This document shows, one piece after another, positions 33,358 to 58,275 of a DNA stretch of 61,573 nt; the first letter of the stretch is position 1; every line of letters begins with the position of its first letter. The stretch comes from Chloroflexia bacterium (GTDB lineage Bacteria; Chloroflexota; Chloroflexia; QHBQ01; JAICKM01), in the NCBI GenBank assembly GCA_035693165.1, contig DASSGZ010000649.1:1-61573 (forward strand), written 5' to 3'. A program made the translations under genes and the position numbers. The notes beneath the pieces are model-generated. The model ran no database searches. It was not told the origin of the DNA and saw only the letters and a list, made by a program, of their open reading frames with translations.

Positions 33358-33454
33358 CGCCTGTATACTCAACATAATGTGAGCCGGCGTGCCGGGGGCT
33401 GTCCTGTGTGCCTGGCGCCGCCGGAAACCCGCCCACCCACGGAAAGCACACCAG

Positions 33455-34690
33455 ATGATCCGTATCCTGCACCTGGCCGACATACACCTGGGTATGGAAA
33501 ATTACGGCCGGGTGGACCCGGCGACCGGCCTGTCCAGCCGCCTGGGCGATTTCCTCGCCAGCCTCGACACCGCGCTCGACTACGCCATCGACCATGCGTT
33601 TGACCTGGTGTTGTTGGCCGGGGATGTCTACAAGAACCGCGACCCCAGCCCCACCATCCAGCGCGAGTTTGCCCGCCGCATCCACCGCCTGTCCGCCGCG
33701 GGCATCCCCACTTTTCTGCTGGTCGGCAACCACGACCTGCCGAATACCTGGGCCCGCGCGCACACGGTCGAGATCTTCGACACGCTGGCCGTGCCCAATG
33801 TCTGGGTGGCGCGCAAGCCCGGCGTCGTCCAGATCCCCACGGCGCACGGGCCTGTGCAAATCGCCGCCCTGCCCTGGGTCACACACCACACTCTGCTGAC
33901 CAAGGACGAGTATCGCAGCTATTCGCACCGCGAACTCAACGGCATCCTGGCCGATAAGGTCGAAGCCTTGATCGACGGTATGATCGACGAGCTCGACCGC
34001 GCCCTCCCCGCCATCTTCACCGCGCACGCGGCCATCGACATCGCCAAGACCTCGTCGGAGCACAGCATGATGCTCGGCGACGACCTGGTGCTGCCGCTGA
34101 GCCTGGTGGCCCGCCCGGAGTTCGACTATGTGGCGCTGGGCCACGTGCATAAGTACCAGGTGTTGCACAAGCACCCGCTGGTGGTCTATCCCGGCAGCCT
34201 CGAACGCATTGACTTCGGCGAAGAGCGCGACCCCAAGGGCTTTGTGACGGTCACGCTCGACGAGACCTGCCCGCGCGGCGAGCGAGCCATGGCGCACGAG
34301 TTTCACGAGGCGGGCGCGCGGCGCTTCCTGACGGTGGAAGTGCATACCAACGGCGGCAATCCCAATGAAACCGTCCTTCGCAAGCTCGCCGCGCGGGCCG
34401 ACGATATTCGCGGGTCCATCGTCCGGGTTGTGATCAAAACCACGGCGGAGCAAGAATCGCTGCTGCGCGACGACGAGATCCGTAAGGCGCTGAGCGAGGC
34501 GGCATATATTGCCTCGGTCAGCCGCGAAGTGGACGCGCCGCAACGCACCCGGCTGGGCGGGCACGCCATCGAGCAACTGACCACCCGCCAGATCCTGGAA
34601 CTATACTGCGCCAGCGCCAAGATCGCGCCGGACCGCACGGCGACCCTGCTGAAATATGCGGACGAGTTGATAGGCGACCCGGCCGAGTGA
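33455..34690 (+). CDS. sbcD: Mre11/SbcD-family metallophosphoesterase nuclease
   Basis: MIRILHLADIHLG, LLAGDVY, LVGNHD, GHVH motifs. Internal ATG chosen. Confidence 0.85.
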   Translation: MIRILHLADIHLGMENYGRVDPATGLSSRLGDFLASLDTALDYAIDHAFDLVLLAGDVYKNRDPSPTIQREFARRIHRLSAAGIPTFLLVGNHDLPNTWARAHTVEIFDTLAVPNVWVARKPGVVQIPTAHGPVQIAALPWVTHHTLLTKDEYRSYSHRELNGILADKVEALIDGMIDELDRALPAIFTAHAAIDIAKTSSEHSMMLGDDLVLPLSLVARPEFDYVALGHVHKYQVLHKHPLVVYPGSLERIDFGEERDPKGFVTVTLDETCPRGERAMAHEFHEAGARRFLTVEVHTNGGNPNETVLRKLAARADDIRGSIVRVVIKTTAEQESLLRDDEIRKALSEAAYIASVSREVDAPQRTRLGGHAIEQLTTRQILELYCASAKIAPDRTATLLKYADELIGDPAE

Positions 34691-34723: not shown

Positions 34724-37700
34724 TTGCCCATGGCTGATCGCTCGCTGAGCAATATAACCCTGCAGGACGCCTACAGCCGCGCGCAAGCCGCGCTCGAAGG
34801 CGGCGACAGCCCCCGCGCTGTCGCCATCACCCAGCACATCCTGCGCTATTATCCCCAGTATATCGACGCCTACCGCCTGCTGGGCGAGGCCTACCTGGAG
34901 TTGGGCCGGCCCGAGGAAGCGATGCGCTTCTTCACCCACGTGCTCAACGCCGACCCCCAGAACGTGCTGGCCCACATTGGCCGCGCCATTATCGCCGAAG
35001 ACCACCACCAGGTCGACATCGCCATCGACGAGTACGAGCGCGCCTTTGAGATCGATCCGAGCATCACCGAACTGCGCGGCGAGTTGCTGCGGCTCTACGC
35101 CATCCGCTACGGCAGCGCGGGCGCCGCGATCCGCACCACGCCGAGCGGTCTGGCCTATGTCCACCTGCGCGCCGGGCTGCGCGACGCGGCCATCAGCGAA
35201 CTCGGCTATGTGGCCCAGGTGCGCCCCGACCGCTGGGATGTCGAGGTGGCGCTGGCCGAGGCCCTCTGGCGCAACGAGCAGTTGGACGAGTGCGCCGCCG
35301 TCGCCGGGGATATCCTGGCCGGCCACCCGGCCTGCGTGAAGTGCAAGTGGCTGCTGGGCTACCTTCATTGGAGCAGCGGGCGCACCGAGAGCGGGCGGCA
35401 ATACCTGATGGACGCCGTGGCCCTCGACCCGGCCTACCGCATCGCCAATGCCGTCTGGGACGCCACGCCCTGGCCCGTGGACCGGCGCATCACCCGCGCG
35501 CAAACCGCCATGGTGCCCGGCTGGACGCAAGAGGAACTGGTCGGCAGCGACCTGGACATCAGCGTGGCGCTGCCGCCGGAACCGCCTGCCTCTAAAGAGG
35601 CACCCGCCGCGCCTGGCGGATCGCGCCGCGTGACTCAGAAATTCGACACCCGCCCGCCCCTGCCCGGTGAGTCGCGCCGCGTGACTCAGAAATTCGACAC
35701 CCGCCCGCCCCTGCCCGGCCAGACCTCCGAACTGACCCCCGCGGAAGAAGTCCCGGCCCCGCCCGCGGCGGCCGCGGAAGCGCTGGAGTGGGACAGTATC
35801 CTGAGCAGCCCGGATGCGCCCGCCCCCTTCGACCTCGACTGGTTGGACGACTGGGCCGCCGCCGCCGAAACCACCCCCGCTGCGCCCGCGCAATCGGCCC
35901 ACGCCACGCTGGAGTTCGAGGCAATCGCGCCTCCCGCCGCCGAGGATAGCGCCCCCCCGCCGGACACGCTGGTCGTCACGCCCGCGCCGGAAGCCGCATC
36001 GCTCGCCATGCCGGTGGAGGCATCAGAGCCGGAAGCCGCTGCGGGCGCCGTGGCAGCAGAAGTAACGGCGCCGGAAGCCCCCCTCCCCCTGGCCGGAGCG
36101 GCAGCAGCAACGGCGCCGGAAGCCCCCCTGGCCGAAGTGGCAGCAGCAGCGGAGCCGGAAGCCGCGCTGGTCGAAACTGATGGTATCACCGAGCAAGAAG
36201 CCACCGAGATCGCAGTGTTCCCGGTCTCGCCTGCCGAGGCCGCGCCTGCCGGGCCGCCCGCGGATGAGGCCGGGTTGCCCGCCGCCGAGCCGGACGGCTT
36301 CCTGGCGTGGCTCAGCGAACCTGCGACAGGCGCGCCGCAAGCGGAGGAGATCGAGGCAGGACCGGCCGAGGATATAGCGGAGGCCAGTGACGCCGCCGAG
36401 TCGCCCGCGGCCCAGGCCGGCATGTTCCCCGCCTGGCTGGACGAACAGCCCGCAGATTCCGGCGCCGCCCCCCCCGCCGAGGGCGAAGACGCGGCGGTAC
36501 CGATCACGGAGTCGTCCTCCGCGCAGCCCAGCATGTTCCCTGAGTGGATGGGTGCGCCGGCCAATGGCGTGCAAGAAGCCGTCCCGGCGGAGAGCGCCGC
36601 CGGCGAGGCAACTGCTAATGTTGTAGAAGCAGCCGCCCCGGCAGAGAGCGCCGCCGATGTGGCCGCAGCGGAGCCGGCGGATCAAGCTGAAGCCGGCGTC
36701 CCGGCGCCCGCCCGGCATCAGGTCGTCCACCTCTTCCCGGCCTGGCTGGAAGAAGCTACGAGCGACGACGAAGACGAGTCGGACCTGGAGATGCTGCCCG
36801 CCTGGATGCGCGAGGCCGGCCCGCTCGAAGCCGGCACCCCGGCTGCAGCAGCCGAGACGACAGCAGATGCGCAAGTCGCCTCGGCGGACGCCGCCATCCC
36901 GACCGAGCACGCCGAGGAGGCCGTGCCCGCCGCGCCTGTCCCGGCGGACGCCCTCAGCTTGATCACCGCCGAGCAGGAAGCGCCGGCGATACTCACCGGC
37001 GAGGAACCCGTCGCCAGGGTAGCGGGGGATCAGGAAGTACCACCAGCGATCTCCCCGGAGGAACCGACTCCGTTTGCAGCGGCGGCGCAAGAGGACGGCG
37101 CGGATATGATGGTCCCGGCGCCCACCGAAGCGGCATCCGCAGATGAAAGTCCGCTGATTGGCGAACCCGCGCTGCCGATTATGGAGCCGGCCCTGGCGGA
37201 AGCCGAAGCAGGCGCGCCCGCCCAGGTCGAGATCATAGTGGCCGAGTCCGGGGCCGAAAGCGAACCGGCCGCCGTGGCCGCGAGTGACCCGGACGCCGCT
37301 ATCCTGCCCGACGATCTGTTCCCGGCCTGGCTGGAGGAGATCGAGCGCAGCGCAGCGACCGGCGCAACCGAAGCCCAAGCGGCCGGGGCCACGGCGCCGG
37401 AAACGACTGCTGAGGAAGCAGCGCCGGCAATGGCCACCCCGCCGGAAGCGAGTACCGAGGAAGCAGCGCCGGTAATGGCCGCCGCAGTGCCGGAAGCCCT
37501 GCCGGCTGAGGAGCCGCAGGCCGGCGTGCCGGAAGCGATGTCTGCGGACGACGTGCAGGCCAGTGCGGCCCCGCCCGAAGCGATGCCTGCTGAGGACGCG
37601 CAGGCGAATGAGGCCGCGCCCGAAGCGCTGCCTGCCGCGGACATACAGGCGAGTACTGTCGCACCGGAAAACGTACCGGCTCAGGGCGTGCCGGCCAATG

Positions 37701-40700
37701 ATGTTGCGCCGGAAGACGTGCCGGCTCAGGGCGTGCCGGCGAATGATGTTGCGCCGGAAGCGCTGCCCGCCGCAGACGCGGACTTTATAGTCGAACCGGC
37801 CACCCCACCGTCCGCAACGGCTGCCACGTCCGAACCCGGTCCTGCGGCGATGGCCGGCGCGGACCGCGTGACGGAGTCTGCGGCGCAGCTTTCTCCCAGC
37901 GAAGACGAGACGTTTCCGGCCTGGATGAGCGAGACCGGCGCGGCCAGTTTGCCGGTGGTTGTCGCGCCTGATGTGCCGGAAGCCGAAAGCGCCGAATCGG
38001 CGGATCGCGAACCGGCCCCTGCGGCGCCTCCCGCGCCGGTGGCCTCCGCGGAGGCCACCGGGATCGCGGCGTCCGCGCCGGGCGATATGCCGCAACCGGA
38101 GATCGACGCGAGTGCAGCGGCGGAAACCGCGTCGGCACAAGAGGCGGCCCCCGAGACGCCGGCAACGGAAGCGAGTGTGCTGCCGGACTGGCTCACCGAA
38201 GCAGTGAACGTGCAGACGCCGGAGGCGACCGGTGCCCCCACGCCGCTGGCGCTCGATGAAGAAACCCTGTTCGCCGCCGACCACACGCTGGGCGGACAGG
38301 CCGGCGAGATCCCCATCGCCGACGACCTCTTCCCCGCGTGGTTGGAGGCCGGCCCTTCCGGCGCGCTGGACGGCGGCGAACTACCGCCCCCGCTTGCGGC
38401 TCAGGTTCCGCCTGAAACGCCGGTTCGGGAAGACAACTCATTGCCACCGATGGTCGCGGCGGAGGATGCCGCCTTCCCCGCTGGGCAAGATGCTGCGGCA
38501 TCTGCACAACCGGCCGGCTTTGCAGAGGCGGCGGGCACACCGGACACGACGAGCACAGCGCAAGCTGCGGCGCCGGGCCTGGCCGCGGGCAGCGCCGAGC
38601 ACATCCCCGCCCCACCTGACACCAGCAAAGAGGCGGACGCGTTCCCGGCGTGGATGGCCGGCTCGTGGTTTGAGGTCGCGGTCGCCCCGGCGCCCGGCGA
38701 GCCCAGCGCGGAACCGCTGGTGATTGTGCCGGAGAGTGCGATAGAGTCCTCCACGGAACCGGCGCCGCCGGTCGAGGCCGGGGCGAACCTCCCGGCGACC
38801 GAGGCCGCCCAGGCCGCCACGCCGGAGGCAGCAGGTGAGGCCTCGGTCGCCGAAGCGGCAGCAGCGGAGAATGAGCTAATCGGGGCGCCGGGCTTCGTCG
38901 TGGCCGGCGATTCGGCGCCGGTCGTGAGCTACTCCGCCGAGGCCACGCCGGAAGCCGCCGACCCGCTGCACGAGGAGATCCTCGATTGGCCGGCGGCCGC
39001 CGAGGGCAGCCCGGATGCTGCCGAAGCCGATCATCCCACCGAACCGGACCCGACGCCGGAAGAGACCGCCGCGCCACCGGTCCTTGCCGCAGCCGCCGAA
39101 CCGCACGATATGCACCCCAGCGAGTCCGCGCCGGACGCCGCAGCGGCGGCGGACACCGAAAGCGCCGGACTGGTGTCGCCCCATGCGGCCGAAGCCGAGG
39201 GCCCGGCCCTATCCGTACTGGCCGGCCCCGAGCCGGGCGTTGGCGCCCCCTCTACCCCCGGCAGTGCCCCCGCAGATGCCGCCGCTGCGCCGCCGGTAGA
39301 TGCCGCCGCCGGAGAAGCCATCGCGGAAACCGCCGCCCCGGCGCCGGATGCGTCTGCCGGGACAGCGGAATCGAGGCCGGCCCCCGCCCTACTCCCCGCG
39401 TTAGATCATTTTGCCAAAGTGGGCTATAATCATGCCGACGACTCACAGGTTCCAGACGACACGGCAGCACCCGGCCCCCCGCTCACCCCGGCAGGCACGA
39501 CCGGCGCCGATGCCGGACCTGGCGAGCGACCGGCAGCCGTCGAAGCCGGTCACCTGCCCGATGGAGCGGTGGAGCATGGCGCGCCCGCCGCAGGCCAAGC
39601 AGCTTTCGCGACCTCAGAGGAGGACAACATGGCTCCAAGCTACAAGGAAGACGACGATCAAGAGCGCCAGTTCGACTTCGACTGGGATCGCGATGCTCTG
39701 CCCGACTATCTCAAGCCCTTCCTCATGAATGAGACTCCCGGCCAGCCGGGACAACCGCCAGCGCCCGCCGCGCCGGCCGGTCCCACGGCCGGCGCCGCGC
39801 CGCCCGCAGGCCGGCCCATGCCGCCCGCGCCGGGGGCCGGGGGCCCAGGGAGCAACGACTTTAACCTGGATCTGGATAACATTCAGCCGTTTGATTTCGG
39901 GGCCCCGCCCCCGGCGCCGTCGCCCGGCCCCGCCACGCCGATCCGGCCGCTGTCCGCAACCCCGCCGCCAGTGGCCCCACCGCCGCAACAGTCGCCGGGT
40001 GGATTCAACGAGAGCGATTTCGGCGGTGTGCAGCCCTTTAACTTCGGCGCGCCCGCCGGCCCAGGGGGCGGCGATGAGTTCGATTTCGGCAGCGAAGCGC
40101 TGCCATCGTGGTTAGGATCGGGTGGCAACGCCGGCCCCGCGTTCAGTTTCGACACGTCCGCCGGCCCGCAGGCCACCGAGCCGGCGCCGGGGCCTGATTT
40201 AAGCAGTCCGGGGATTCCCGATTGGCTGCGCACCCCGGAAACGGAGACGCCCCAGGCCGCCCGGCCCGGTCCGGCCGCGCCCCCGCCCCCGGCCGCGCCC
40301 GGCGGCGACTTCGACTTTGGCAGCGAGGCGCTGCCGTCCTGGTTGAGCGCGAGCGCCGCGCCGGCCCCGCCCGCCGCGAACGATTTCGGCGATGTGCAGC
40401 CCTTTGACTTCGGTGCCCCCGCGGGCCAGGGCCAGCCCCAGCCCTTCGACTTCGGCGCCCCCGCGGGCGGTCAGGGCCAGCCGCAACCCTTTGACTTCGG
40501 CGCCATGGCCGGCGGCGGCCCGCAGCCGTTTAACTTCGGCGCGCCCGCCACTCCCGAGCGCGGCCCCGCCCCGGCCCCGTCGCAGGAGTTTGACCTGGGC
40601 GGCGTCCAGCCATTTGATTTCGGTGCCCCGGCCACGCCTGCGCCGCCCGCCGCGCAAAGTACACCCGGTGGGCCGGCCCCAGGCGGCGACTTTGACTTTG

Positions 40701-43700
40701 GCGGCATCCAGCCGTTTGATTTCGGCGGCACCGCCGCGCAGGCAGGCGAAAGCGCCGCGCCGCAGGCAGCCGGGGCGCCCGGCGAGTTTGATTTCAGTAT
40801 GGTCGAGTCGTTCGACTTCCGGGGTCCCGGCGCCACGCCGTCCGCGGGCGGCGCCAATGACTTTGATTTCGGGGGCGTCCAGCCGTTTGACTTCGGCGGG
40901 GCACCGGCCGGCGGCGAGATGGCGGGCGATGTGAGCGATGTCGATGACTTTATCGACTTCCTGAGCGTGGGCGCGGGCAACGCCGCGCCTGCCGTGCCCG
41001 CGCCCGACGAGTTCGCCTTCGACCTGGGCGGCGACGTGCAGCCCTTCTCGCTGGAAGGCATGGGGTTGGGCAGCACGCCCGGCGCCCCCAGCCCGGCCTT
41101 CGGCGCGCCCCCCGCGCCCGGCCCGGCCTTCAGCGCCCCGCCCGCGCCCATGGCCGGCGCGCCGGCAGGCGGCGTGCGGCTGCCCGCGGGCCCCGGTCCC
41201 GAGGAGATGGGCAGCCTGGCCGGCGACGAATTCAGCTTCGAGCCGTTCATGTTTGATGCCGCGGGCGGCGCCGCCCCGCCCGCTCCGTCCGCCCCGCCGG
41301 CCTTCAACCAGGCGCCCGCCATGCCCACGTCGCCCTTCAATCCGGGGTCGGCATTTGCGAACCGCGCGCCGGCGGATGTGCCGCCCGGCCTGGAGGATCT
41401 GCCCGATCTCCAGCCCTTCTCGTTCGAGGGCCTGGATGCGACCGGCGATCAGGGCTATGGGTTTGACTCCGGCGCCGGGGGCCAATCCTTTGGCCGGCGC
41501 GCGACCGATCGCGGGGAAACCAGCCGTAGCGGCATGGCCTTCAACCTGGAAGAAGAAACCAACGCCCCCGCCGGGGATGTGCATAGCTTCTCGTGGCAGC
41601 GCCGCAGCACGCCGGCCCGCGAACCGGCCCATGCCCCGGAGGCGCCCGAGACCGCTGGATCTATCTTCGCCAAGGCGCGCAAGCGCAAGGAGGAGCTGGA
41701 ACAAACCCTGCGCCAGGAGGCGGAAGCGCGCGGCGAGGTCTACACGCCCCCGCCGGTGGCCGCGAACCTGCACCCGGAGGAAGCCGCAGAATTGAGTTAC
41801 TGGCCCAATCTGGACGAAGAAGAGGCTGTGGCGAGCGCGCCGGCCCAACCGGCGGTCCAACCCTTTGACTTTACCGCCGTGGCCGGTCCCACGCCCGCCG
41901 ATGTCGCCCAGGATATGGCGAGCCTGCAACTGGCGCCGTTCGAGTTCGAGGAAGAAGGCCCGCCCGCCGCCGGATCGCCGACTATCCAGTTGCCGGAGGA
42001 AAGCGCGCAAGCGAGCGCCCAGGCCCCCGCGGCGCCCCAGTTCGCCGCCGACCAGACAATCCAGGTGCCGTTGCAGGATCAGGCCGGCCTGGAGGCCGGC
42101 GCCCCGGCCATGCCCGAGCCGTTTGCCTTTGAGGCCGCGGAGATCCCTGCCGAAATCCAGCCCTTCTCGTTCGATCTGGGCGCAGAGGCGCAGGCCGCGC
42201 CCGCCGAGGCGCAAGCCGCCTCGCCGCCTGCCGAACCCTTTGCCTTTGAAGCCCCGGAACCCGGCGCCGCCCCGGTTGAACCGTTCGCCTTCGAGGTCCC
42301 GGCCGGCGGTCCCACCGCCGTCCAACCCTTCACTTTCGAAGCCCAGGAAGGCCCGCCGCCGGCTGTCGAACCGTTCACGTTTGAGGTCCAGGAAAGCGCC
42401 GCCGCCACCGCCGAACCTTTTGCCTTTGAGCCGGAGGCCGGCGAGGCTGCGCCTGTCCAGCCCTTCAGTTTCGAGGCCCAGGAAACCGAAGCGGCCGCCG
42501 TCCAGCCCTTCAGTTTCGAGACCCAGGAAAGCGAAGCGGCCGCCATCGAGCCCTTCAGTTTCGAGACCCAGGAAACCGAAGCGGTGGCTGTCCAGCCCTT
42601 CACCTTCGAGGCCCCCGAGGCCGGCGCGCCGGTGGAGCCGTTCGTCTTTGACACCGCCGCTCCGGCGGAATCTGCCGCGCAAGCCGCGCCCGTTACTGCC
42701 GAGGCCCCCGAGGCTGCCGCGCCCGCAGTGGAACCCTTCGCCTTCGATATGACCGAAGCGCCGGAGGCTCCCGCCGTCGAGCCGTTCACCTTCGACATGG
42801 CGGAGAGCGTTGCGCCGCCCACCTTCGAGCCCGCGGAACCGAGTGCCGCGGCGCCGCAGGCGGAAGCCGCCCCGCAGGAAGCCGCAGCGGGCGAATTGCT
42901 CTGGAGTATCCCCGTCGCCGAAGCGGGTAACGCACCCACGGCGGAAGCCACCGCCACCGGCGGCTTCGGCGAGGAAGTGGCGCCCGGCGAATTCGACTTC
43001 AGCGGCCTCCAGCCGTTTGACCTTGGGGCGCTGGACCTCACGCCCGAAGAACGCGCCTACCTCACCGGCGAGGCAGCCGCCGCCGAGGCGGCGCCCGCTG
43101 AGGTAAGTGCGCAGGCGCCCGCCGAACCCGCCGCCGTCGCGGCGCCGGAGGAGCCGGCGGGGATTCCCGAACTCCAGTTGCAGCAGACCGAACCCGCCGG
43201 CCCCATCGAGCCGTTCAGCTTCGATATGACTGAGTTTGAGCCGCCCGCCGCCGAACCGCCCGCGATGGACCTGGGCGGGGTGCCGCCCGCCGAGGCGCCC
43301 GGCTACGAGGCCGGCGCGCCCACGGCCACGGTCGAACCGGTCGAGTTCGGCATGAGCGAGGCGAGCGAAGCCGCCACGGTCGAGCCGTTCGAGTTCGACA
43401 CGGAAGCCGCCGCGCCCGCGCCCGCCGAGCCGTTCCAGTTCGAGCCGTTCCAGTTCGAGCCGGAAGCGCCGCCCGCGCCGGAGCCGGTCGAGATCGAGGC
43501 AGAGGCCACCGAAGACGAAGCGGCGCTACCGTTCAGCTTCGAGGCCTCCGCCGAGCCGGCCGTCACGCACTACGAAACCACGACGCGCACCGGTACCGGG
43601 CCGCTGGCCGCCGAAACCTGGGCGGAAATTCCGGCCGCCGGCGCCTTCGACTTCAGCGGGGTCGAGATGGACCAGGCACCCACCGAACCCGCCGTGGCCG

Positions 43701-44224
43701 AGGCGCCCGAACCCGCCGTCGCCCAGGCGCCTGAACCCGTCGTCGCGCAGGCGCCTGAAGCGCCCGCCGCCGAGGCGCCCGTGGAAACCCCCGCGCCGGT
43801 GCCCCCGGCCCCTGTGGCCGAGGCGCCTGCCCCTAAAGAGGCATCGAAAGAGGCACCGGTGGCCGCCCAACCGGCCCCGGTCCCGGTCGCGCCGCCCGCG
43901 CCGGCGGGGGGCTCCATCGACGACCTGGCCCGCCATCTGCGCGAGAACCCGGACGACACCGCCGGGCGCCTGGCCCTGGCGATCGGCTACGAGCAACGCG
44001 ACGACATCTCGCGCGCCGCCGAGCAATATCGCCTGCTGATCAAGGGCCGCAATGTGCCGGAAAATCTGCTCGACATCGTGACGGGCAACCTGCGCGATCT
44101 GGTCGAGGCCCAGCCCGATAATCCATCCTTACATCGCCTGCTGGGCGACGCCTACATGAAACAGGGCCAGTACCAGATGGCAATCGCCCAGTACAACTGG
44201 TTGCTGACCAAGGGCACACGCTAG
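34724..44224 (+). CDS. Giant (3,166 aa) acidic low-complexity protein with TPR-like N-terminal (~270 aa) and C-terminal (~100 aa) caps; no family recognised
   Basis: Single uninterrupted frame with G/C-rich third positions. TPR-like YIDAYRLLGEAYLELGRPEEAMRFF and LLGDAYMKQGQYQMAIAQY. Start is TTG 34724 or ATG 34730. Confidence 0.85.
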   Translation: MPMADRSLSNITLQDAYSRAQAALEGGDSPRAVAITQHILRYYPQYIDAYRLLGEAYLELGRPEEAMRFFTHVLNADPQNVLAHIGRAIIAEDHHQVDIAIDEYERAFEIDPSITELRGELLRLYAIRYGSAGAAIRTTPSGLAYVHLRAGLRDAAISELGYVAQVRPDRWDVEVALAEALWRNEQLDECAAVAGDILAGHPACVKCKWLLGYLHWSSGRTESGRQYLMDAVALDPAYRIANAVWDATPWPVDRRITRAQTAMVPGWTQEELVGSDLDISVALPPEPPASKEAPAAPGGSRRVTQKFDTRPPLPGESRRVTQKFDTRPPLPGQTSELTPAEEVPAPPAAAAEALEWDSILSSPDAPAPFDLDWLDDWAAAAETTPAAPAQSAHATLEFEAIAPPAAEDSAPPPDTLVVTPAPEAASLAMPVEASEPEAAAGAVAAEVTAPEAPLPLAGAAAATAPEAPLAEVAAAAEPEAALVETDGITEQEATEIAVFPVSPAEAAPAGPPADEAGLPAAEPDGFLAWLSEPATGAPQAEEIEAGPAEDIAEASDAAESPAAQAGMFPAWLDEQPADSGAAPPAEGEDAAVPITESSSAQPSMFPEWMGAPANGVQEAVPAESAAGEATANVVEAAAPAESAADVAAAEPADQAEAGVPAPARHQVVHLFPAWLEEATSDDEDESDLEMLPAWMREAGPLEAGTPAAAAETTADAQVASADAAIPTEHAEEAVPAAPVPADALSLITAEQEAPAILTGEEPVARVAGDQEVPPAISPEEPTPFAAAAQEDGADMMVPAPTEAASADESPLIGEPALPIMEPALAEAEAGAPAQVEIIVAESGAESEPAAVAASDPDAAILPDDLFPAWLEEIERSAATGATEAQAAGATAPETTAEEAAPAMATPPEASTEEAAPVMAAAVPEALPAEEPQAGVPEAMSADDVQASAAPPEAMPAEDAQANEAAPEALPAADIQASTVAPENVPAQGVPANDVAPEDVPAQGVPANDVAPEALPAADADFIVEPATPPSATAATSEPGPAAMAGADRVTESAAQLSPSEDETFPAWMSETGAASLPVVVAPDVPEAESAESADREPAPAAPPAPVASAEATGIAASAPGDMPQPEIDASAAAETASAQEAAPETPATEASVLPDWLTEAVNVQTPEATGAPTPLALDEETLFAADHTLGGQAGEIPIADDLFPAWLEAGPSGALDGGELPPPLAAQVPPETPVREDNSLPPMVAAEDAAFPAGQDAAASAQPAGFAEAAGTPDTTSTAQAAAPGLAAGSAEHIPAPPDTSKEADAFPAWMAGSWFEVAVAPAPGEPSAEPLVIVPESAIESSTEPAPPVEAGANLPATEAAQAATPEAAGEASVAEAAAAENELIGAPGFVVAGDSAPVVSYSAEATPEAADPLHEEILDWPAAAEGSPDAAEADHPTEPDPTPEETAAPPVLAAAAEPHDMHPSESAPDAAAAADTESAGLVSPHAAEAEGPALSVLAGPEPGVGAPSTPGSAPADAAAAPPVDAAAGEAIAETAAPAPDASAGTAESRPAPALLPALDHFAKVGYNHADDSQVPDDTAAPGPPLTPAGTTGADAGPGERPAAVEAGHLPDGAVEHGAPAAGQAAFATSEEDNMAPSYKEDDDQERQFDFDWDRDALPDYLKPFLMNETPGQPGQPPAPAAPAGPTAGAAPPAGRPMPPAPGAGGPGSNDFNLDLDNIQPFDFGAPPPAPSPGPATPIRPLSATPPPVAPPPQQSPGGFNESDFGGVQPFNFGAPAGPGGGDEFDFGSEALPSWLGSGGNAGPAFSFDTSAGPQATEPAPGPDLSSPGIPDWLRTPETETPQAARPGPAAPPPPAAPGGDFDFGSEALPSWLSASAAPAPPAANDFGDVQPFDFGAPAGQGQPQPFDFGAPAGGQGQPQPFDFGAMAGGGPQPFNFGAPATPERGPAPAPSQEFDLGGVQPFDFGAPATPAPPAAQSTPGGPAPGGDFDFGGIQPFDFGGTAAQAGESAAPQAAGAPGEFDFSMVESFDFRGPGATPSAGGANDFDFGGVQPFDFGGAPAGGEMAGDVSDVDDFIDFLSVGAGNAAPAVPAPDEFAFDLGGDVQPFSLEGMGLGSTPGAPSPAFGAPPAPGPAFSAPPAPMAGAPAGGVRLPAGPGPEEMGSLAGDEFSFEPFMFDAAGGAAPPAPSAPPAFNQAPAMPTSPFNPGSAFANRAPADVPPGLEDLPDLQPFSFEGLDATGDQGYGFDSGAGGQSFGRRATDRGETSRSGMAFNLEEETNAPAGDVHSFSWQRRSTPAREPAHAPEAPETAGSIFAKARKRKEELEQTLRQEAEARGEVYTPPPVAANLHPEEAAELSYWPNLDEEEAVASAPAQPAVQPFDFTAVAGPTPADVAQDMASLQLAPFEFEEEGPPAAGSPTIQLPEESAQASAQAPAAPQFAADQTIQVPLQDQAGLEAGAPAMPEPFAFEAAEIPAEIQPFSFDLGAEAQAAPAEAQAASPPAEPFAFEAPEPGAAPVEPFAFEVPAGGPTAVQPFTFEAQEGPPPAVEPFTFEVQESAAATAEPFAFEPEAGEAAPVQPFSFEAQETEAAAVQPFSFETQESEAAAIEPFSFETQETEAVAVQPFTFEAPEAGAPVEPFVFDTAAPAESAAQAAPVTAEAPEAAAPAVEPFAFDMTEAPEAPAVEPFTFDMAESVAPPTFEPAEPSAAAPQAEAAPQEAAAGELLWSIPVAEAGNAPTAEATATGGFGEEVAPGEFDFSGLQPFDLGALDLTPEERAYLTGEAAAAEAAPAEVSAQAPAEPAAVAAPEEPAGIPELQLQQTEPAGPIEPFSFDMTEFEPPAAEPPAMDLGGVPPAEAPGYEAGAPTATVEPVEFGMSEASEAATVEPFEFDTEAAAPAPAEPFQFEPFQFEPEAPPAPEPVEIEAEATEDEAALPFSFEASAEPAVTHYETTTRTGTGPLAAETWAEIPAAGAFDFSGVEMDQAPTEPAVAEAPEPAVAQAPEPVVAQAPEAPAAEAPVETPAPVPPAPVAEAPAPKEASKEAPVAAQPAPVPVAPPAPAGGSIDDLARHLRENPDDTAGRLALAIGYEQRDDISRAAEQYRLLIKGRNVPENLLDIVTGNLRDLVEAQPDNPSLHRLLGDAYMKQGQYQMAIAQYNWLLTKGTR
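35621..35722 (+). repeat. Near-perfect 51-bp tandem duplication inside the giant gene (SRRVTQKFDTRPPLPG x2)
   Basis: The copies start at 35621 and 35672. The 48 nt encoding SRRVTQKFDTRPPLPG are identical and only the trailing codon differs (GAG vs CAG). Confidence 0.95.
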
Positions 44225-45170: not shown

Positions 45171-45620
45171 TTGGAACGTACGCTTATTATCCTGAAACCC
45201 GACGCCGTGCAGCGGGGCCTGGCCGGCGAGATCCTGAACCGGCTGGAGCGCCGGGGCTTGAAGATCGCCGGCATGAAGATGATGCAGGTCAGCCCCGAAC
45301 TGGCGAAAGAACACTATGCCGAGCATGTCGGCAAGCCCTTCTATAACGGCCTGATCGAGTATATCACCTCCTCGCCGGTGGTCGTGCTGGTGCTGGAGGG
45401 CAAGAACGCCGTCGCCATTTCGCGCAGCACCATCGGCGCCACCAATCCGGCCAACGCCGCCCCCGGCACCATCCGCGCCGACCTGGCCGTCGAGACGGGC
45501 CGCAACCTCATCCACGGGTCTGCCGACCCGGAAGCCGCCGCCCGCGAAGTGAGCCTCTGGTTCAAGGACGACGAACTGACCTCGTGGCCGCGCGATACCG
45601 ACCGCTGGATCCAGGAGTAA
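45171..45620 (+). CDS. ndk: Nucleoside diphosphate kinase
   Basis: ERTLIILKPDAVQRGL...NLIHGSAD. TTG start behind GAAGGAG. Confidence 0.93.
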   Translation: MERTLIILKPDAVQRGLAGEILNRLERRGLKIAGMKMMQVSPELAKEHYAEHVGKPFYNGLIEYITSSPVVVLVLEGKNAVAISRSTIGATNPANAAPGTIRADLAVETGRNLIHGSADPEAAAREVSLWFKDDELTSWPRDTDRWIQE

Positions 45621-48508: not shown

Positions 48509-50935
48509 TTACGGGTTGCGGAGCGCAGCCTGGCTGGGCGCGCAGTTCAGCGGGAAGAAGGTTTGCGAGGCTACCTTGCTCACCTGCCCGCGGGTGATGT
48601 TGGCGTTGGGCCGGTAGTAGACTCCTGGGCAGGGCTCGCCGGGGCCGCCGCAGGTGTAGCCGCTGATCACGCCGTGCAGCGACAGCCGCTCGATGAACAC
48701 ATAGAACGGGTTGGCCGCGGGCACGTCGGCGAACGTCTGGCCGCTGGGCGTCTCGTTATAGCCGGCGGCGTTGGCGTCGATCTTGGCGAGCTGGCCGCGC
48801 GTCACCGGCAGTTCCCAGCGGAAGCAGGGCACGCCCGACGGGCAGTTGGCCGCCGTATCGTAGCCGCTGATCGCCCCCGTCGCCGCCAGTCGCTCGATGT
48901 AGACGTAGAACGGGTTGCTGGCGGGCACGTCGGTGAACGTCTGGCCGCTGACGGCCGCGTTCAGCCCCGCGGAGTTGGCGATGATCTTCGACACCTGGCC
49001 GCGGGTCACGTCCACGCCCCAGCGGAAGGTGTTGTCGCTATAGCCGCTGATGATGCCCCGGCAGTAGAGACACTGGATGTACTGGTAGAACGGGTTGAAG
49101 GAGTCCACGTCGGTGAACGGCAGCGGGCAGTTCACCGGGGTGGCCGTGGCGGCGGGCGCGGTCGGGGTGGCCGTCGCACCGGCCGGCGGCGTAACCGTCG
49201 GCGGAGCCGGGGTGGTCGTCGCCGCGACGCCGGTGGGCGTCTCCGTCGCGGTCGCCGGCAGCGCGGTCGCGGTCGCCGGCGGCACGGTGACCGTCGGTGG
49301 GACGGCGGTATGGGTGGCCGTCGGCGGCACGGCGGTGGCCGTGGCCGTGGCGGTCGGCGGAGTGCCGGTCACAGTCGGCGTGGGGGTGGCGGCACCGTTG
49401 ACGGCGGCCAGCGCGTCGATCCGCCCGTAGCCAAAGTGGTTGTTCGGGATCGTGGTGTAGGGAATACCGCCGCAGGACGTGGCGCCCGTCGTAACCAGCA
49501 CGGTCGGGTTCGCCGTCTGCTCCAGCAGCGCCTTCGTGGCGGCGATCTGGCGCACCAGATCGGGCCGGGCCGACCAGAGCAGGGCCACCACGCCGACGAC
49601 GTGCGGCCCGGCCATCGAGGTGCCCGACAGGCTGGCGTAGCTCGTCGTGCCCGAGTAGTAGGCGGAGCGCACATTCACGCCGGGCGCCGAAATGTCGGGC
49701 TTGCGCCGGTTGGAACCGTCTACCGTCACCGGGCCGCGGCTGCTGAAGCTCGCCAGGGTGTTGCTGCTGTTGTAGGCACCGGTGCTGAACGCCGCGCTGT
49801 AGATGGCGGGCGGATCGCTGACGGAGGAGCAGGAACTGCCGCTGTTACCCGCCGACGCCTCGACGAAGATGCCGGACGCCTCCGTACTTTCGACGATCGT
49901 CTGTAGGGTCGTGGCCGCGCACCCCTCACTGGTGGGGCAACCCCAACTGTTGTTCATCACATGCGGGCGCCGGGCCGGGTCCGGGTTTTGACCGTTCAGA
50001 TCGTATGGTGCTATGAAGAACTGGAAACACTCGGTATACGTGGCCGGGGTGCCGTTGCCCTGGTCCATGTTGCGGCAGCCGATCCACTTGGCGCCGGGGG
50101 CCACGCCGATCTGATTCCCGCCACCGTCGTCGCCGATCACGGTGCCGGTGGTATGGGTGCCGTGCCCGTCATCGTCGCAGGGGAACGGCGAGTTGGCGCC
50201 GCAGATGCCCCCGCCGCTGTGGACGGAGTCATGCCAGTTGTAGTTGTGGTCGGCGGTGGTGCCGTTCCAGCCGCGATAATGGCCCTTGAGGGCCGCGTGG
50301 TCCCAGAGCATGCCGGTGTCCTGGTTGGCGATAACGATGCCTTGGCCGGTATAACCCAGCGCCCAGACCGCCGGCGCGTTCACATTCGCCACGCCCCACT
50401 CGACCGCGCCCGGCACCGCCGGGGCCGTGCTCTCGCCCTGCGGCGCGCGCACCGGGTCGCTGATGCCGGCGAAGGGCGCGTTGGACTCGATGGCGCGCAC
50501 ATCGTCGCGCGCGGCCAGCGCGTCGATCAGGGCGCGGTCGCCGGTGGTCATAATGACGTTCGCCACCCAGAACGACTGGTAGGTGCGGCCCTGGGCGCGC
50601 AGGAACGCCTGGAGCGGGCCCTGCGTGCGCGCCGCCGTGTCGCGCAGGGTGTTATAGACAAACCAGCCGCGCGCATCCTGGTCGCGCATGTTGTACGCGC
50701 TGCTCAGGTCGGCCTGCTCGGCCAGCAGAATCACGATCGGGGCGCTGGCGCCGTTCGCGGTGGCGCGCAACACCTCGGGGGCAATCGTGACCGGCCCGCG
50801 CGCCGCGGGCGCCACCTGGCCGGCGGCCAGGCCCGGCGAAATCATGCCGGCCAGATCGAACACGGACAGCGCCAGCAAGGCCGTCAGCGCCCACGCGGCG
50901 AATGCCCGCCGCCGGAGTCGTAGGGGTCCCTTCAT
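48509..50935 (-). CDS. Secreted subtilisin-family (S8) serine protease with I9-like propeptide, Thr/Pro linker and three C-terminal SLH domains
   Basis: Catalytic motifs NQDTG, HGTHTTG, SGTSMAGPH. The SLH cassette is almost identical to paralogs A-C. Start moved to MKGPLRLRRRAF behind GGAAGGAG. Confidence 0.9.
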   Translation of the reverse strand: MKGPLRLRRRAFAAWALTALLALSVFDLAGMISPGLAAGQVAPAARGPVTIAPEVLRATANGASAPIVILLAEQADLSSAYNMRDQDARGWFVYNTLRDTAARTQGPLQAFLRAQGRTYQSFWVANVIMTTGDRALIDALAARDDVRAIESNAPFAGISDPVRAPQGESTAPAVPGAVEWGVANVNAPAVWALGYTGQGIVIANQDTGMLWDHAALKGHYRGWNGTTADHNYNWHDSVHSGGGICGANSPFPCDDDGHGTHTTGTVIGDDGGGNQIGVAPGAKWIGCRNMDQGNGTPATYTECFQFFIAPYDLNGQNPDPARRPHVMNNSWGCPTSEGCAATTLQTIVESTEASGIFVEASAGNSGSSCSSVSDPPAIYSAAFSTGAYNSSNTLASFSSRGPVTVDGSNRRKPDISAPGVNVRSAYYSGTTSYASLSGTSMAGPHVVGVVALLWSARPDLVRQIAATKALLEQTANPTVLVTTGATSCGGIPYTTIPNNHFGYGRIDALAAVNGAATPTPTVTGTPPTATATATAVPPTATHTAVPPTVTVPPATATALPATATETPTGVAATTTPAPPTVTPPAGATATPTAPAATATPVNCPLPFTDVDSFNPFYQYIQCLYCRGIISGYSDNTFRWGVDVTRGQVSKIIANSAGLNAAVSGQTFTDVPASNPFYVYIERLAATGAISGYDTAANCPSGVPCFRWELPVTRGQLAKIDANAAGYNETPSGQTFADVPAANPFYVFIERLSLHGVISGYTCGGPGEPCPGVYYRPNANITRGQVSKVASQTFFPLNCAPSQAALRNP

Positions 50936-51059
50936 TACGGTTTGTGTTACTCCTTCCCTGTGATAAAACCGGAACCGATAGATCGCCGCACAACGGGGAT
51001 TTAGGGCTGTCCCGAATGGGCCGCGGCAGGCAGACAAACTGCGCGGGACATAGGCGCAT

Positions 51060-55281: not shown

Positions 55282-58275
55282 TTACGGGTTGCCCAGCGCG
55301 AGGTAGACGATTTTGGCGACCTGGCCGCGCGTGGCTTCGCGTTCGGACCGGAAGGTGCCGTCGGCGTAGCCGGAGATGATGCCGTGGCCGTAAGCCGTCT
55401 CGATGTAGCTGTAGAAGGGGTGGCCGGGCGGCACGTCGCTGAAGTGGCCCACCGCCGGGTTGGCTAACGGCCAGCCCTGGGCCAGCACCACGATCTTGCA
55501 GATCTGGCCCCGGCTCACGTTGGCCGAGGGGTGGAAGGTGCCGTCGGCGTAGCCGGAGATGATGCCGTGGGCGTAGGCCGTCTCGATATAATTGTAGAAA
55601 GGATGGCCCGGCGGCACGTCGCTGAAGTGGCCCTGGGCCGGACTCGCCAGCGGCCAGCCGTTGCTCAAGACCACCACTTTGGAGAGTTGGCCGCGCGTCA
55701 TGTTGGCGCCGGGGCGGTAGGTGCCGTCGGCGTAGCCGGAGATCACGTTGCGGCACGCCAGGTAGGTGACGGGTGTGTAGAAGTAGTCGGCCGGGTGCAC
55801 GTCGCTGAAGGTGATGGCGCAGGGGCCGGGTGTGGGCGTGTGGGTGGGCGCCGGGGTGGCCGTGGGCACGCCGCCGATGGGCGTCGGCGTGGGCGTGGCG
55901 AAGATGCCGCCGCAGGCCACCGCGTCAATCGAGGTCAGCACGATGCCGTTGTAGCCGCCGGTCGCCAGCAGCAGGTGGCCATTGCTGGCGTAGGCCGCGG
56001 CCAGGGTGCGCCGCGCGGTCGCCAGCGGCGCCAGCGGGGCCCATTCGCCGGTGGCCGGGTTATAGCGTTCGCCGCTAGCCTGGGGAGTGAACCAGCCGCC
56101 GCCGAACACGTACAGGTAGCCGCCGCAGGGCAGACCGCTGTCCAGCCCGATGGCCGCCGCGCCGCCGCGCGGGGTTTGCAGCGGCGCGCCCTGGCTCCAG
56201 CTATTGCTCGCCGGATCATAAATCTGCACCGTCGCCAGGTCGACCGGCGCGGTCACGTTGGTGATCCCGCCGATGGCGTAGATGCGCCCGTTGACCGCGG
56301 CGGCGGCCAGGAAGACCCGCGCCGTCGGCATGTCGGCGCCGCGTGACCAGCGCGTGCCCGCGGGCTGGGCCGGGTCGTAGATATACACCGTGCGCGTGCT
56401 GGTGACGTTGTCCGAGCCGCCGATGACATAGAGCTTGCCGCCCAGCCCCACGACCCCGGCGCCGTAGCGCGGCGCGGGCAGCGGGTCGCTGCTGACGATG
56501 GTGGCGCCGTCGGTGGGCGGGTGGTAGGTCTGCAACACGCTCACGGCAGTGTTGCCGTTAAAGCCGCCCGGTAAGTAAATCGTGTCACCCAGCAGCCCGG
56601 CGCCCACGTTGCTTACCGGCAGCAGCAGGGACCGTCGCGGCGTCCAACTGTCGGCCCGCGCGTCGTACTCCTCGATCGGCAGGTCCATGTCGTTGTTGGT
56701 GGTCACGCCGCCCAGCAGGTAGACGCGCCCGTTGGCCGGGTAATCGACCATGGCGTGGCGCTGGCGCGGTTCCGGCAACGGGTGCCGCTGGACCTGGCTG
56801 CCGTTAAAGGTGGTGAACTGCGCGGTGCCGTAGTAGTTGCACGATCCGCTGCTCTGGGCGCTGGCCGTCACCACCACCACATCGGCCTCGCCTGCCTGCG
56901 ACGTGGTGGGGATGGTCACCTGCACCGTCACGCTGATGCCCGCGCCCGGCGCCATGACCCCGGTGTGCTGCGGCGATACCGTCGTCGGCCAGGAGTTCCC
57001 CGCGGTCGTCAGATTGAAACTGGTGGCCGTGCCGCTCTGGTTATAGAGGCTGGTGGTGTAGGTCTTGACGCTGCCCGCCGTGCCCGACGCCGACCCCGAA
57101 TCGGGCACGAAGTCGGCGCCGGTGGAGTTGAGCAGGGTGGTCAGGCGCACGCTTTCGCCCAGCGGGAAGGCCGGGTTGGTCGATTGCACCGTCAGCGTGG
57201 TGACGTTGGTCGAGCCGATGGGCGACCCCGGCGGCACGTTCACCACCACCTCGAACGGCACGCTGAGACCGGGCGAGATCACCCCGGTGTCGAGGGGAGC
57301 CACCGTCGAATGGAACAGCGGGTTGCTATCCACCACCGCAAGGCTGAAGGCGACGCCCACCGTGGCCGGGTTGACGACCCGCCCGTTGAAGACGGCGTTG
57401 TTGCATCCGGCGATGTTCGCCGTCTGGTTGCCGGGGTTGACCAGGGCCACGAAGCGCACCGCGCGGCCCGCATTAAGCGCGCTCTCCTCGAAGCTGTACA
57501 TGATGCCCGTCGTTTGCGCGTAGTTCTGGATGCCGACCGTCGCGCTCGTGCCCGTGGCGCGCAGCCCATCGACCGCGGCGTACTCGAAGTCGATCTGGTT
57601 GCTGTTTTCGTGGAACTGGATCTCAAACGTGACCGAGCCGTTCTCGTGATAGAACCCGACATTGCGCCACTCCACCAGGAAGGTGCGCGTGGGGGCCGTG
57701 CCGATCACGTCGGTGTAGACGCCGCCGGACGCCGGGCTGTCCGGGATCACCAGGTCGTCCCAGAACGGAGCGATCAGCGCCGGCGGGGCCACGGCATTGG
57801 GCAGCCGCAAGTTCGTCCAGCAATCGACAGTATCGCAGTAACCCTGCGGGATATAGGCGATACCGTTGGCGTCGAGGGTCAGCGTGAACGAGGTGCGGTC
57901 GTAGATCGTCACGGCGAACGGCAGGGTAATGGTCTGGGTCACCTCGTCACCGGTCATATCGGGCAGCACATTGCCGGCGGCGATGTAGTTGTACGCCGGG
58001 CCGTTCGGCTCGGTGTTGTCGCTGACCATGTAGCCGTAGGCGTCCGGCCCGACCTGGCGCAGCGGGGTCGCGGTGCTCTGGCCGGGCATGTCCTGGGCGG
58101 CGAGCGGCGGGCGCGGCGGGACATCCTGCGGTTTGGGCGGGCGGGTGGGGGCCGCCGCGGCGGACAGCGGGGCGCCCATGGCCGCCTCGCGGCCCCCGGC
58201 GGCGGCGAACACGGCCAGGACCAGCAAGACAGCCGCGAGGAGCATCCCGCCCCACAGCATGCCGCGATTACGCAT
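55282..58275 (-). CDS. Secreted Kelch-repeat beta-propeller protein with an N-terminal unknown domain, Ig-like repeats and three C-terminal SLH domains (a divergent SLH lineage)
   Basis: Repeated ...GG..G......V..YDP....W... Kelch-like blades. SLH FSDVPPGHPFY..GIISGYADGTF..TRGQ occurs three times. Start at MRNRGMLWGG behind GGAAGGAG. Confidence 0.85.
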   Translation of the reverse strand: MRNRGMLWGGMLLAAVLLVLAVFAAAGGREAAMGAPLSAAAAPTRPPKPQDVPPRPPLAAQDMPGQSTATPLRQVGPDAYGYMVSDNTEPNGPAYNYIAAGNVLPDMTGDEVTQTITLPFAVTIYDRTSFTLTLDANGIAYIPQGYCDTVDCWTNLRLPNAVAPPALIAPFWDDLVIPDSPASGGVYTDVIGTAPTRTFLVEWRNVGFYHENGSVTFEIQFHENSNQIDFEYAAVDGLRATGTSATVGIQNYAQTTGIMYSFEESALNAGRAVRFVALVNPGNQTANIAGCNNAVFNGRVVNPATVGVAFSLAVVDSNPLFHSTVAPLDTGVISPGLSVPFEVVVNVPPGSPIGSTNVTTLTVQSTNPAFPLGESVRLTTLLNSTGADFVPDSGSASGTAGSVKTYTTSLYNQSGTATSFNLTTAGNSWPTTVSPQHTGVMAPGAGISVTVQVTIPTTSQAGEADVVVVTASAQSSGSCNYYGTAQFTTFNGSQVQRHPLPEPRQRHAMVDYPANGRVYLLGGVTTNNDMDLPIEEYDARADSWTPRRSLLLPVSNVGAGLLGDTIYLPGGFNGNTAVSVLQTYHPPTDGATIVSSDPLPAPRYGAGVVGLGGKLYVIGGSDNVTSTRTVYIYDPAQPAGTRWSRGADMPTARVFLAAAAVNGRIYAIGGITNVTAPVDLATVQIYDPASNSWSQGAPLQTPRGGAAAIGLDSGLPCGGYLYVFGGGWFTPQASGERYNPATGEWAPLAPLATARRTLAAAYASNGHLLLATGGYNGIVLTSIDAVACGGIFATPTPTPIGGVPTATPAPTHTPTPGPCAITFSDVHPADYFYTPVTYLACRNVISGYADGTYRPGANMTRGQLSKVVVLSNGWPLASPAQGHFSDVPPGHPFYNYIETAYAHGIISGYADGTFHPSANVSRGQICKIVVLAQGWPLANPAVGHFSDVPPGHPFYSYIETAYGHGIISGYADGTFRSEREATRGQVAKIVYLALGNP

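Follow-up and report, generated by a model that had tools for sequence, protein, structure and literature searches.

A giant TPR-linker-TPR protein of a Chloroflexia bacterium carries conserved arrays of a short di-aromatic motif

Main

Long, conserved arrays of short motifs in disordered proteins are a eukaryotic hallmark, known from nuclear pores, endocytic hubs and dynein light-chain hubs, and are barely documented in bacteria. The repeats of the yeast nucleoporin Nsp1 read PAFSFG, and the spacers of FG domains are rich in Ser, Thr, Asn and Gln or mix Lys with Asp and Glu, and are not net acidic. Endocytic arrays of DPF/DPW and FxDxF motifs rely on low-affinity, multivalent docking to the small folded appendage domains of AP2. 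Other disordered scaffolds are read by Roadblock proteins, which are usually homodimers. A bacterial example is the roadblock dimer MglC, which binds RomR, a scaffold that contains an intrinsically disordered region, through the acidic C-terminal region of the latter (PMC10329633). PoxR-type V4R domains form dimers with a hydrophobic pocket that takes up a phenol ring, the related TRAPPC3 holding palmitate (PMC10933270). Here we analyse a stretch of 61,573 nucleotides (nt) from a Chloroflexia bacterium (contig DASSGZ010000649.1; hereafter, the window), in which a giant open reading frame (ORF) encodes a protein of 3166 amino acids (aa) with tetratricopeptide repeat (TPR) domains at both ends and a block of F-x-F-G (FxFG) motifs in the linker between them. 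A sequence-only reading of this DNA had likened the block to nucleoporin FxFG repeats and had offered either a cohesive meshwork or multivalent docking sites for a folded partner as its function. We class the protein as a multivalent short-motif scaffold and not as a nucleoporin relative.

The FxFG block and its conserved core

All 13 F-x-F-G motifs of the protein are confined to aa 1723-2058 (Table 1), with Asp as the x residue in 11 of them and Asn in two; the interval from the end of this block to position 41470 holds F-x-F[DES] variants. The four example peptides quoted in the sequence-only reading (IQPFDFGAPPPAP, VQPFNFGAPAGPGGG, QPQPFDFGAPAGGQG and GGVQPFDFGGAPAGG) were all reproduced by translating ORF 34724-44224, and the array lies in the interval given there, but the count of about 11 P-F-x-F-G motifs had to be revised to nine, plus four of the form [DE]-F-[DE]-F-G. 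In 20000 composition-preserving shuffles of the segment, F.FG occurred 0.85 +/- 0.90 times with a maximum of 6, compared with 13 in the real sequence, and QPF[DN]FG occurred 0.001 times, compared with nine; the array is therefore non-random. Its spacers are uncharged and rich in Gly, Pro, Ala and Gln (Pro 20%, Gly 17%, Ala 16%), as had been described, but the block as a whole is not low in charge: over its 336 aa, Asp and Glu together make up 11%, Arg 1% and Lys none, giving a net charge of -31 and a fraction of charged residues of 0.12. Phe accounts for 11% of the block, at intervals of 8-56 residues. The proposed disorder was borne out by AlphaFold2, run on aa 1630-2330 with few homologues available, which predicted a local distance difference test score (pLDDT) mostly below 50 for the block; local exceptions in this region were the conserved island upstream of the block (~78-80), the peptide IPDWLRTP (~70) and a basic helix, SIFAKARKRKEELEQTL (>90).

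We next compared the block between orthologues. Scanning a genome collection with a narrow alignment of the N-terminal TPR domain (N-TPR) gave 12 Chloroflexia loci, to which L015, L020 and L025 were added through a metagenome scan and contig look-up; the window locus is referred to as WIN. Orthologues from at least 12 Chloroflexia contigs have the same ends and internal islands, and L001, L003, L004, L020 and L025 each have 8-16 FxFG motifs at the corresponding position behind the island. Motif positions, which the sequence-only reading had allowed might not be conserved, align across WIN, L001 and L020 with spacers that differ. Of the 62 F/W residues in this alignment, 39 are identical, and identity reaches 52% in motif columns compared with 31-39% in spacers. 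Across 90 orthologous PFx[FL] instances, the core consists of V/I (70%), Q (72%) or E (18%), P, F, D (52%) or S (19%), and F (87%) or L (13%), and the residue after the second aromatic is G in 50%, E in 28%, D in 13% and S in 7%. As judged from these instances, the conserved grammar is [VI]-[QE]-P-F-x-[FL], not F-G.

The same core recurs in orthologues with an N-TPR identity of only 40-60%. Roseiflexaceae and Chloroflexaceae orthologues carry 13-19 copies of [LT][QTA]PF[ST][LF][DA]DLGL (for example, LQPFSLDDLGL), and in L007 and L008 the zone after the island consists mostly of eight GLPSWL motifs, together with LQPFSFDD. The compact orthologue L005 (830 aa) retains both TPR caps, the island, the basic helix and single copies of the F-class islands, with one degenerate unit only (DGFDFSGVQPFDSSG). 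Array copy number thus ranges from 0 to ~45 between orthologues (PFx[FL], 0-35), and the TPR caps are kept in all of them; this is the behaviour of a sticker-and-spacer protein, in which motif copy number changes by duplication and loss while the flanking domains are kept.

These comparisons bear on the proposed likeness to nucleoporins, which did not survive them: Gly follows the core in only half of the orthologous motifs, the deeper orthologues have PF[ST][LF][DA]DLGL, the block is acidic and lacks Lys, and no Pfam nucleoporin FG model matched the whole protein or the FxFG zone at E <= 1. We also found no NCBIfam match to the block. A cohesive FG domain without a shared origin, in which homotypic Phe contacts would drive a hydrogel or condensate with no need for a folded partner, could draw on the high Phe content, the flexible spacers, the small fraction of charged residues and the predicted disorder, and also on the PAFSF/PAFDFG variants present in the window protein and in L003, which recall the repeats of yeast Nsp1. 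We nevertheless consider such a domain unlikely. Chains with this net charge, without Lys and with Asp inside 11 of 13 motifs, should repel one another; the Gly is not conserved (50% G, 41% E/D); and the core is found as well in the strongly acidic Ala/Glu zone further along the protein (net -107) and, in other genera, as PFSLDDLGL. The conserved [VI]-Q-P upstream of the aromatics is more in keeping with a motif that a folded pocket recognizes than with one for generic cohesion.

Only three copies form a recent tandem at the DNA level, a window-specific triplication of the QPQPFDFGAPAGGQG unit that appears as a three-unit insertion when WIN is aligned with L001 and L020, so most of the array is not explained by recent duplication; in the remaining copies, the DNA has diverged and the motif is kept. 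This bears on the idea that the linker is an entropic spacer or elastomeric tether that supplies length and flexibility, its motifs being by-products of tandem duplication with no specific partner. Such a linker could tolerate the roughly tenfold variation in its length (whole proteins range from 318 to 3166 aa), the tandem duplication that is visibly ongoing and a Pro/Gly/Ala-rich composition. It would not account for motifs retained in copies with diverged DNA, for motif positions and a V/I-Q-P flank that are conserved across genera where spacers are not, or for the loss of arrays together with the adaptor genes described below, and we regard it as quite improbable.

Co-variation of the arrays with two adaptor genes

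The giant gene is followed in the window by genes for a V4R-domain protein and a Roadblock/LC7 protein (Table 1). Co-occurrence was scored in 13 loci, with an array defined as at least 8 copies of PFx[FL] or at least 10 copies of FxFG. Both adaptor genes lie downstream in WIN, L003 and L025, which have 15-35 PFx[FL] and 10-16 FxFG motifs; Roadblock alone is downstream in L002, L007, L008, L009, L010 and L012, with 8-19 and 0-2 motifs, respectively; and L005, L013, L023 and L024 have neither gene downstream and no motif of either kind. PFx[FL] arrays were therefore found in 9/9 loci with a downstream Roadblock gene and 0/4 without, and FxFG arrays in 3/3 loci with V4R and 0/10 without.

In a neighbour-joining tree of SbcD-like and N-TPR sequences (200 bootstraps), L005 falls within the WIN/L001/L025 clade (200/200), with L002 as sister and L004, which is close to L003, as outgroup. 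Parsimony on this tree suggests that V4R, Roadblock and FxFG arrays were ancestral to the WIN/L001/L025/L005/L002/L004 group. L005 would then have lost V4R, Roadblock and all arrays and kept the caps, island and helix, and L002 would have lost V4R and almost all FxFG motifs and kept Roadblock and PFSF[DE] motifs; their placement in the tree makes the two losses independent. It is above all this joint appearance and loss of arrays and adaptor genes that speaks for the motifs as ligands of the adaptors.

Our leading reading, which we hold tentatively, is that the FxFG block is a lineage-specific amplification of an acidic di-aromatic short linear motif and that the motifs dock the V4R and Roadblock proteins encoded downstream. 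We are more confident that these are functional docking motifs in general than in the assignment of a specific receptor. Of the two functions offered by the sequence-only reading, the comparative data thus favour multivalent docking to a folded partner, and among the possible partners that this reading named, the V4R and Roadblock proteins appear to be the best receptor candidates. The core [VI]-[QE]-P-F-[DS]-[FL], often preceded by [DE]-F-D-F-G-G, would act as the sticker in the disordered linker of a cytoplasmic scaffold. The Roadblock/LC7 dimer is a candidate receptor for PFx[FL] motifs generally, with peptides such as LQPFSFEGLD, VEPFAFEAP and the Chloroflexaceae LQPFSLDDLGL as putative ligands, and the V4R protein is a candidate receptor for the Gly-rich FxFG flavour, with QPFDFG, QPFDFGAPAGG, DFDFGGVQPFDF and DFDFGGVQPFDFGG as putative ligands. 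If dimeric receptors occupied a ligand that offers 30-45 sites, the expected product would be either beads on a string or a condensate or cross-linked network, the ends of which may be held by the TPR caps. Motif binding, stoichiometry, network formation and cellular role are all inferred here from sequence comparison. For the cellular role, our guess would be a GTPase- or nucleoside triphosphate (NTP)-linked organising hub, because of the Roadblock gene and the invariant neighbour ndk, which encodes nucleoside diphosphate kinase.

Several points weigh against docking to these two adaptors. The co-occurrence is drawn from 13 loci, in which perhaps 3-4 evolutionary events took place, and it may simply be that these loci inherited a large operon variant from a common ancestor. 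Genomes without adaptor genes in the operon could encode them elsewhere. The L002 gene (10001-17715 of a 656-kb long-read contig) was stitched together and needs 3-4 frame changes, because either the assembly has homopolymer errors in GC-rich repeats or the gene is decaying. The net charge of the Roadblock protein is also negative (~-6), which sits awkwardly with the binding of acidic motifs, and there is no small GTPase gene within the window.

Architecture of the giant protein

We ruled out a spurious ORF in GC-rich DNA on the basis of codon-position GC content (0.80 at third positions versus 0.58 at second positions) and of the caps and internal islands conserved in orthologues. A Pfam scan of the 3166-aa protein matched TPR at the two ends only, and the protein has no signal peptide or transmembrane segment, its maximum 19-residue Kyte-Doolittle hydropathy being 1.18. 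More than 60 short motifs of at least two classes, an F-class and a W-class, are distributed along it (Table 1). The PFxF core occurs 32 times in total, and the QPFDFG motifs are the Gly-context version of this core, which recurs along the giant protein. Within the acidic array, Tandem Repeats Finder detected 6.5 copies of a 45-nt repeat at 42320-42614. The N-terminal TPR domain is followed directly by two copies of the basic motif ESRRVTQKFDTRPPLPG, encoded by a perfect tandem duplication of 51 nt (35621-35718); the doubled motif is also present in P0001, a 96%-identical fragment.

Table 1. Coordinates of the giant gene, its internal features and its neighbours in the window
Feature	Position	Strand	Evidence or remarks
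SbcD-like metallophosphoesterase	33389-34690	+	34 nt 5' of giant gene; NCBIfam TIGR00619 sbcd, 155.9 bits (cut-off 77.65)
Giant TPR-linker-TPR ORF, 3166 aa	34724-44224	+	TPR caps at both ends; ~2800-aa disordered linker with short-motif arrays
N-terminal TPR domain, aa 1-262	34724-35509	+	Pfam TPR_16/TPR_19 and related models; family-defining
Acidic Ala/Pro/Glu linker, net -169	35825-38671	+	~12 W-class motifs [FL]P[AED]W[LM]; motif map, composition
Shine-Dalgarno-like GAGGAGGA, then in-frame ATG (Met1636, 39629)	39611-39631	+	Possible internal start
Conserved island MAPSYKEDDDQERQFDFDWDRDALPDYLKPFL	39629-39727	+	Immediately upstream of FxFG block; 60-90% identity in 8 loci; pLDDT ~78-80
FxFG block, aa 1723-2058	39890-40897	+	9 QPF[DN]FG and 4 [DE]FDFG in Gly/Pro/Ala spacers; 3 interleaved LPSWL/IPDWL motifs
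Recent tandem triplication of QPQPFDFGAPAGGQG unit	40396-40528	+	45-nt period, 78-87% match (Tandem Repeats Finder); window-specific
Single-copy F-class islands DDFIDFLSV, FDLGGDVQPFSLEG, GDEFSFEPFMFD, LEDLPDLQPFSFEGL	40958-41443	+	Identical or nearly so in WIN, L001, L020
Basic helix SIFAKARKRKEELEQTL	41654-41710	+	AlphaFold2 pLDDT >90; conserved in L002, L003, L005, L007, L008
Acidic array, net -107	41864-43546	+	~22 [EQ]PFxF[ED] motifs (core ~25 times at aa 2381-2941), mostly 15-residue period; motif map, composition
C-terminal TPR cap	43889-44224	+	Pfam TPR_11/TPR_20; 31-73% identity in orthologues
V4R-domain protein, 163 aa	44234-44725	+	Pfam V4R 3e-21; PoxR-type C...ExxC-x7-C motif
Roadblock/LC7 protein, 115 aa	44773-45120	+	Pfam Robl_LC7 3e-15
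Nucleoside diphosphate kinase (ndk)	45171-45620	+	Pfam NDK 5e-57

Two elements close to the FxFG block stand out. The basic helix is predicted by AlphaFold2 to be the sole confidently structured element in the middle 700 aa; its counterpart in L012 reads SIFARLKQRR, and it may contact nucleic acid, membrane or a coiled coil. The island MAPSYKEDDDQERQFDFDWDRDALPDYLKPFL, which is also found in P0003 and P0012, opens with an in-frame methionine, Met1636. A GGAG-type element lies 8-11 nt 5' of the ATG that opens this MAPSYKEDDD island in 8/8 orthologues and is kept even where the encoded residues differ (SEED versus MKEN); any such Shine-Dalgarno-like element precedes only 3/45 in-frame ATGs. The gene is frameshifted or split just upstream of Met1636 in L020 (~7252) and L025 (3830-3890), two independent assemblies of one species, with Met1636 taken as the start of a called product of 1383 aa. 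Met1636 could be an internal start or mark a two-gene arrangement; given the conserved Shine-Dalgarno-like element and the split at this point, the FxFG block may lie near the N terminus of a separate product.

We also compared the F-class motif with two bacterial peptide motifs. A sliding-clamp-binding motif, QL[SD]LF, was set aside because its hydrophobic register does not fit Q-P-F-[DS]-F. The C-terminal tip of SSB, DFDDDIPF, resembles DFDFGGIQPF and gives a tentative lead only: here there is one extra residue before the Pro, and the motif is internal.

A Chloroflexota-wide TPR family linked to ndk

An N-TPR profile search recovered ~100 Chloroflexota clusters at E < 1e-40, down to 1e-105, with 32-97% identity. 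On this comparison, the window protein is a true member of a Chloroflexota-wide, ndk-linked TPR-linker-TPR family, the linker of which is expanded into motif arrays in Chloroflexia. A typical member has ~290-440 aa, with 0-3 PDWL motifs, a short linker and no annotation beyond 'tetratricopeptide repeat protein'. One complete member of 513 aa (P0005) consists of TPR, three EEVPDWL motifs and TPR, with caps predicted by AlphaFold2 at pLDDT >90 and a linker below 50. The W-class motif [DE][DE]-[IVLF]-P-x-W-[LM] (DDLFPAWLEE, EEVPDWLRELK) is found family-wide, including in P0005-P0007, and also in members without Roadblock or V4R. It resembles the conserved C-terminal peptide of FtsZ, D-I-P-x-F-L-R. 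By analogy, this likeness and the ndk neighbour hint at a link to a GTPase or the cytoskeleton.

In fold and PDB searches, the top structural matches to the minimal homologue and its TPRs were the TPRs of PEX5, OGT and APC; the fold search of the minimal homologue and the PDB sequence searches gave no specific functional assignment, only generic TPR, Roadblock and V4R relatives. As TPRs are classical peptide-binding modules and both caps are conserved in every family member, the protein might assemble through its own caps, with F- and W-class motifs bound in TPR grooves either in cis, as auto-inhibition, or in trans, as a polymer or network; the W-class motifs even of minimal members without adaptor genes would have a receptor in this way. 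Four members with both caps have no PFx[FL] arrays, however, which argues against the caps as the F-class receptor, and the PDWL segments of the minimal homologue were predicted by AlphaFold2 as isolated short helices (pLDDT ~60) without confident docking. Self-assembly through the caps is, in our view, improbable.

The adaptors themselves have recognizable relatives. Among PDB entries, the phenol sensors CapR, PoxR and MopR were weak matches to the window V4R protein, which retains the Zn-type C...ExxC-x7-C motif; the Roadblock protein matched an Asgard Roadblock, CvnB5 and MglB. Sequence identity is 69-94% (8 loci) for Roadblock and 40-77% for the TPR domain, so that Roadblock is by far the better conserved. 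Chloroflexia operons have an inserted Roadblock/LC7 gene between the TPR and ndk genes, and those of WIN, L003 and L025 have an inserted V4R gene as well. The ndk gene lies directly downstream of the TPR gene in every context examined except L007 and L008: after any inserted adaptor genes, it was found in WIN, L002, L003, L005 (12474-12923), L009, L010, L012, L013 (4954-5562, with a 4-nt overlap with the TPR gene), L023 (5076-5525) and L024 (5303-5752). Judged by this distribution, ndk is the ancestral downstream partner of the family gene, and the pairing of TPR and ndk across distant Chloroflexota suggests an unexplored functional link.

An SbcD-like gene lies upstream of the giant gene in the window and, among the closer Chloroflexia orthologues, also in L001, L002, L004-L008, L020 and L025; there is no SbcC-like ATPase near the window copy. 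Elsewhere in the window, five large SLH-domain proteins are encoded on the minus strand (1184-4351, 4894-7941, 8359-11778, 48509-51037 and 55282-58338), including a subtilase and a Kelch-propeller protein, which points to an organism with an SLH-anchored cell surface.

Rarity of the array

A word-indexed homologue search with the FG zone returned one match, to the upstream island and not to the repeats. Such a search says little about rarity, so we ran a full HMMER search of 1.84 billion representative proteins with the FxFG block; it gave three matches, all of them fragments or orthologues of the TPR-linker-TPR family, so the array is very rare in this set. A metagenome scan for tandem QPF[DN]FG identified nine loci: two TPR-linker-TPR orthologues, six J-domain proteins and one match, probably due to chance, in a reading frame without a recognizable protein. 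These searches cover the QPF[DN]FG-type flavour, and other bacterial FxFG arrays may exist beyond that scope. Literature searches on bacterial FG repeats, motif strings, TPR with ndk and Chloroflexota short linear motifs returned no description of the family or the motif, although such an absence is no proof.

The six J-domain proteins (L014, L016, L017, L019, L021 and L022) are high-GC proteins of the DnaJ/CbpA type, with a J domain and DnaJ_C, and carry GGQPFDFGG...G[YQ]GPFDFG in the Gly/Phe (G/F) region between the two (GGQPFDFGG...GYGPFDFGS in the scan). They raise the possibility that the block imitates a DnaJ-class G/F region and recruits or modulates the Hsp70 DnaK. We think this very improbable: each J-domain protein has only two copies of the motif, the window protein and operon have no J domain, the operon lacks any chaperone gene and the acidic context is unlike that of typical DnaK-binding peptides. 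The likeness amounts to a 6-residue motif and may be convergent.

Discussion

The arrays described here come and go with two small adaptor genes, a natural experiment that yields a testable hypothesis in which V4R reads FxFG and Roadblock reads PFx[FL]. Should the adaptors bind the motifs, this would give bacterial V4R domains a peptide-reading role and Roadblock a scaffold-binding role outside Myxococcus, and filamentous Chloroflexia would have a new heterotypic condensate or scaffold system. A bolder version, which we consider doubtful, is a bacterial repeat-and-reader system in which a giant disordered Phe-motif scaffold, with a true FxFG flavour among its arrays, is read by V4R, a protein of the TRAPP Bet3 fold with a pocket for an aromatic ring, together with a Roadblock/LC7 dimer, forming a cross-linked cytoplasmic network or condensate. 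In function, such a system would be a prokaryotic counterpart of FG-repeat/receptor or light-chain-hub systems, built from fold families of eukaryotic trafficking. Even without adaptor binding, the locus would still show clearly how fast a disordered linker can expand and contract within a TPR-ndk operon that is itself conserved.

Comparison with known systems

Like the FG nucleoporins Nsp1 and Nup153, the window protein has many F-x-F-G cores in a long disordered region, with Phe at ~10% and a spacing of ~10-50 residues, often with Pro two residues before the first Phe, and its disordered region is anchored to alpha-solenoid modules, here TPRs. It differs from them in having no sequence homology, in a core that includes [VI]-Q-P and continues in non-Gly contexts, and in being acidic, without Lys and with Asp as the x residue; the window holds no karyopherin, NTF2 or pore genes. 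The endocytic accessory proteins Eps15, epsin and AP180 also present dozens of Pro/Asp/Phe/Trp motifs in disordered regions and, as in the window protein, interleave F-type with W-type motifs, but they are eukaryotic, their receptors are beta-sandwich/platform ear domains and their motifs are DPF or FxDxF rather than QPFDF.

In RomR-MglC-MglB of Myxococcus, Ragulator p18 with the LAMTOR roadblock dimers, dynein intermediate chain-LC7 and the dynein-interacting domain (DID) of Nup159 with LC8/Dyn2, small dimeric Roadblock or light-chain proteins read a scaffold that is disordered and partly acidic, as we propose here; those scaffolds have one or a few sites (5-6 in Nup159) compared with 30-45 in the window protein, for which binding is a prediction. 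The G/F region of DnaJ/CbpA shares QPFDFGG/GPFDFG in a Gly-rich flexible segment, with two copies beside a J domain compared with at least 13 copies and no J domain in the window protein. The closest relatives are the ordinary ndk-linked TPR-linker-TPR proteins, which share the homologous N-TPR, the C-terminal TPR and the downstream ndk gene; those proteins are short, whereas the window protein extends to 3166 aa, carries more than 60 motifs and is followed by two extra adaptor genes before ndk.

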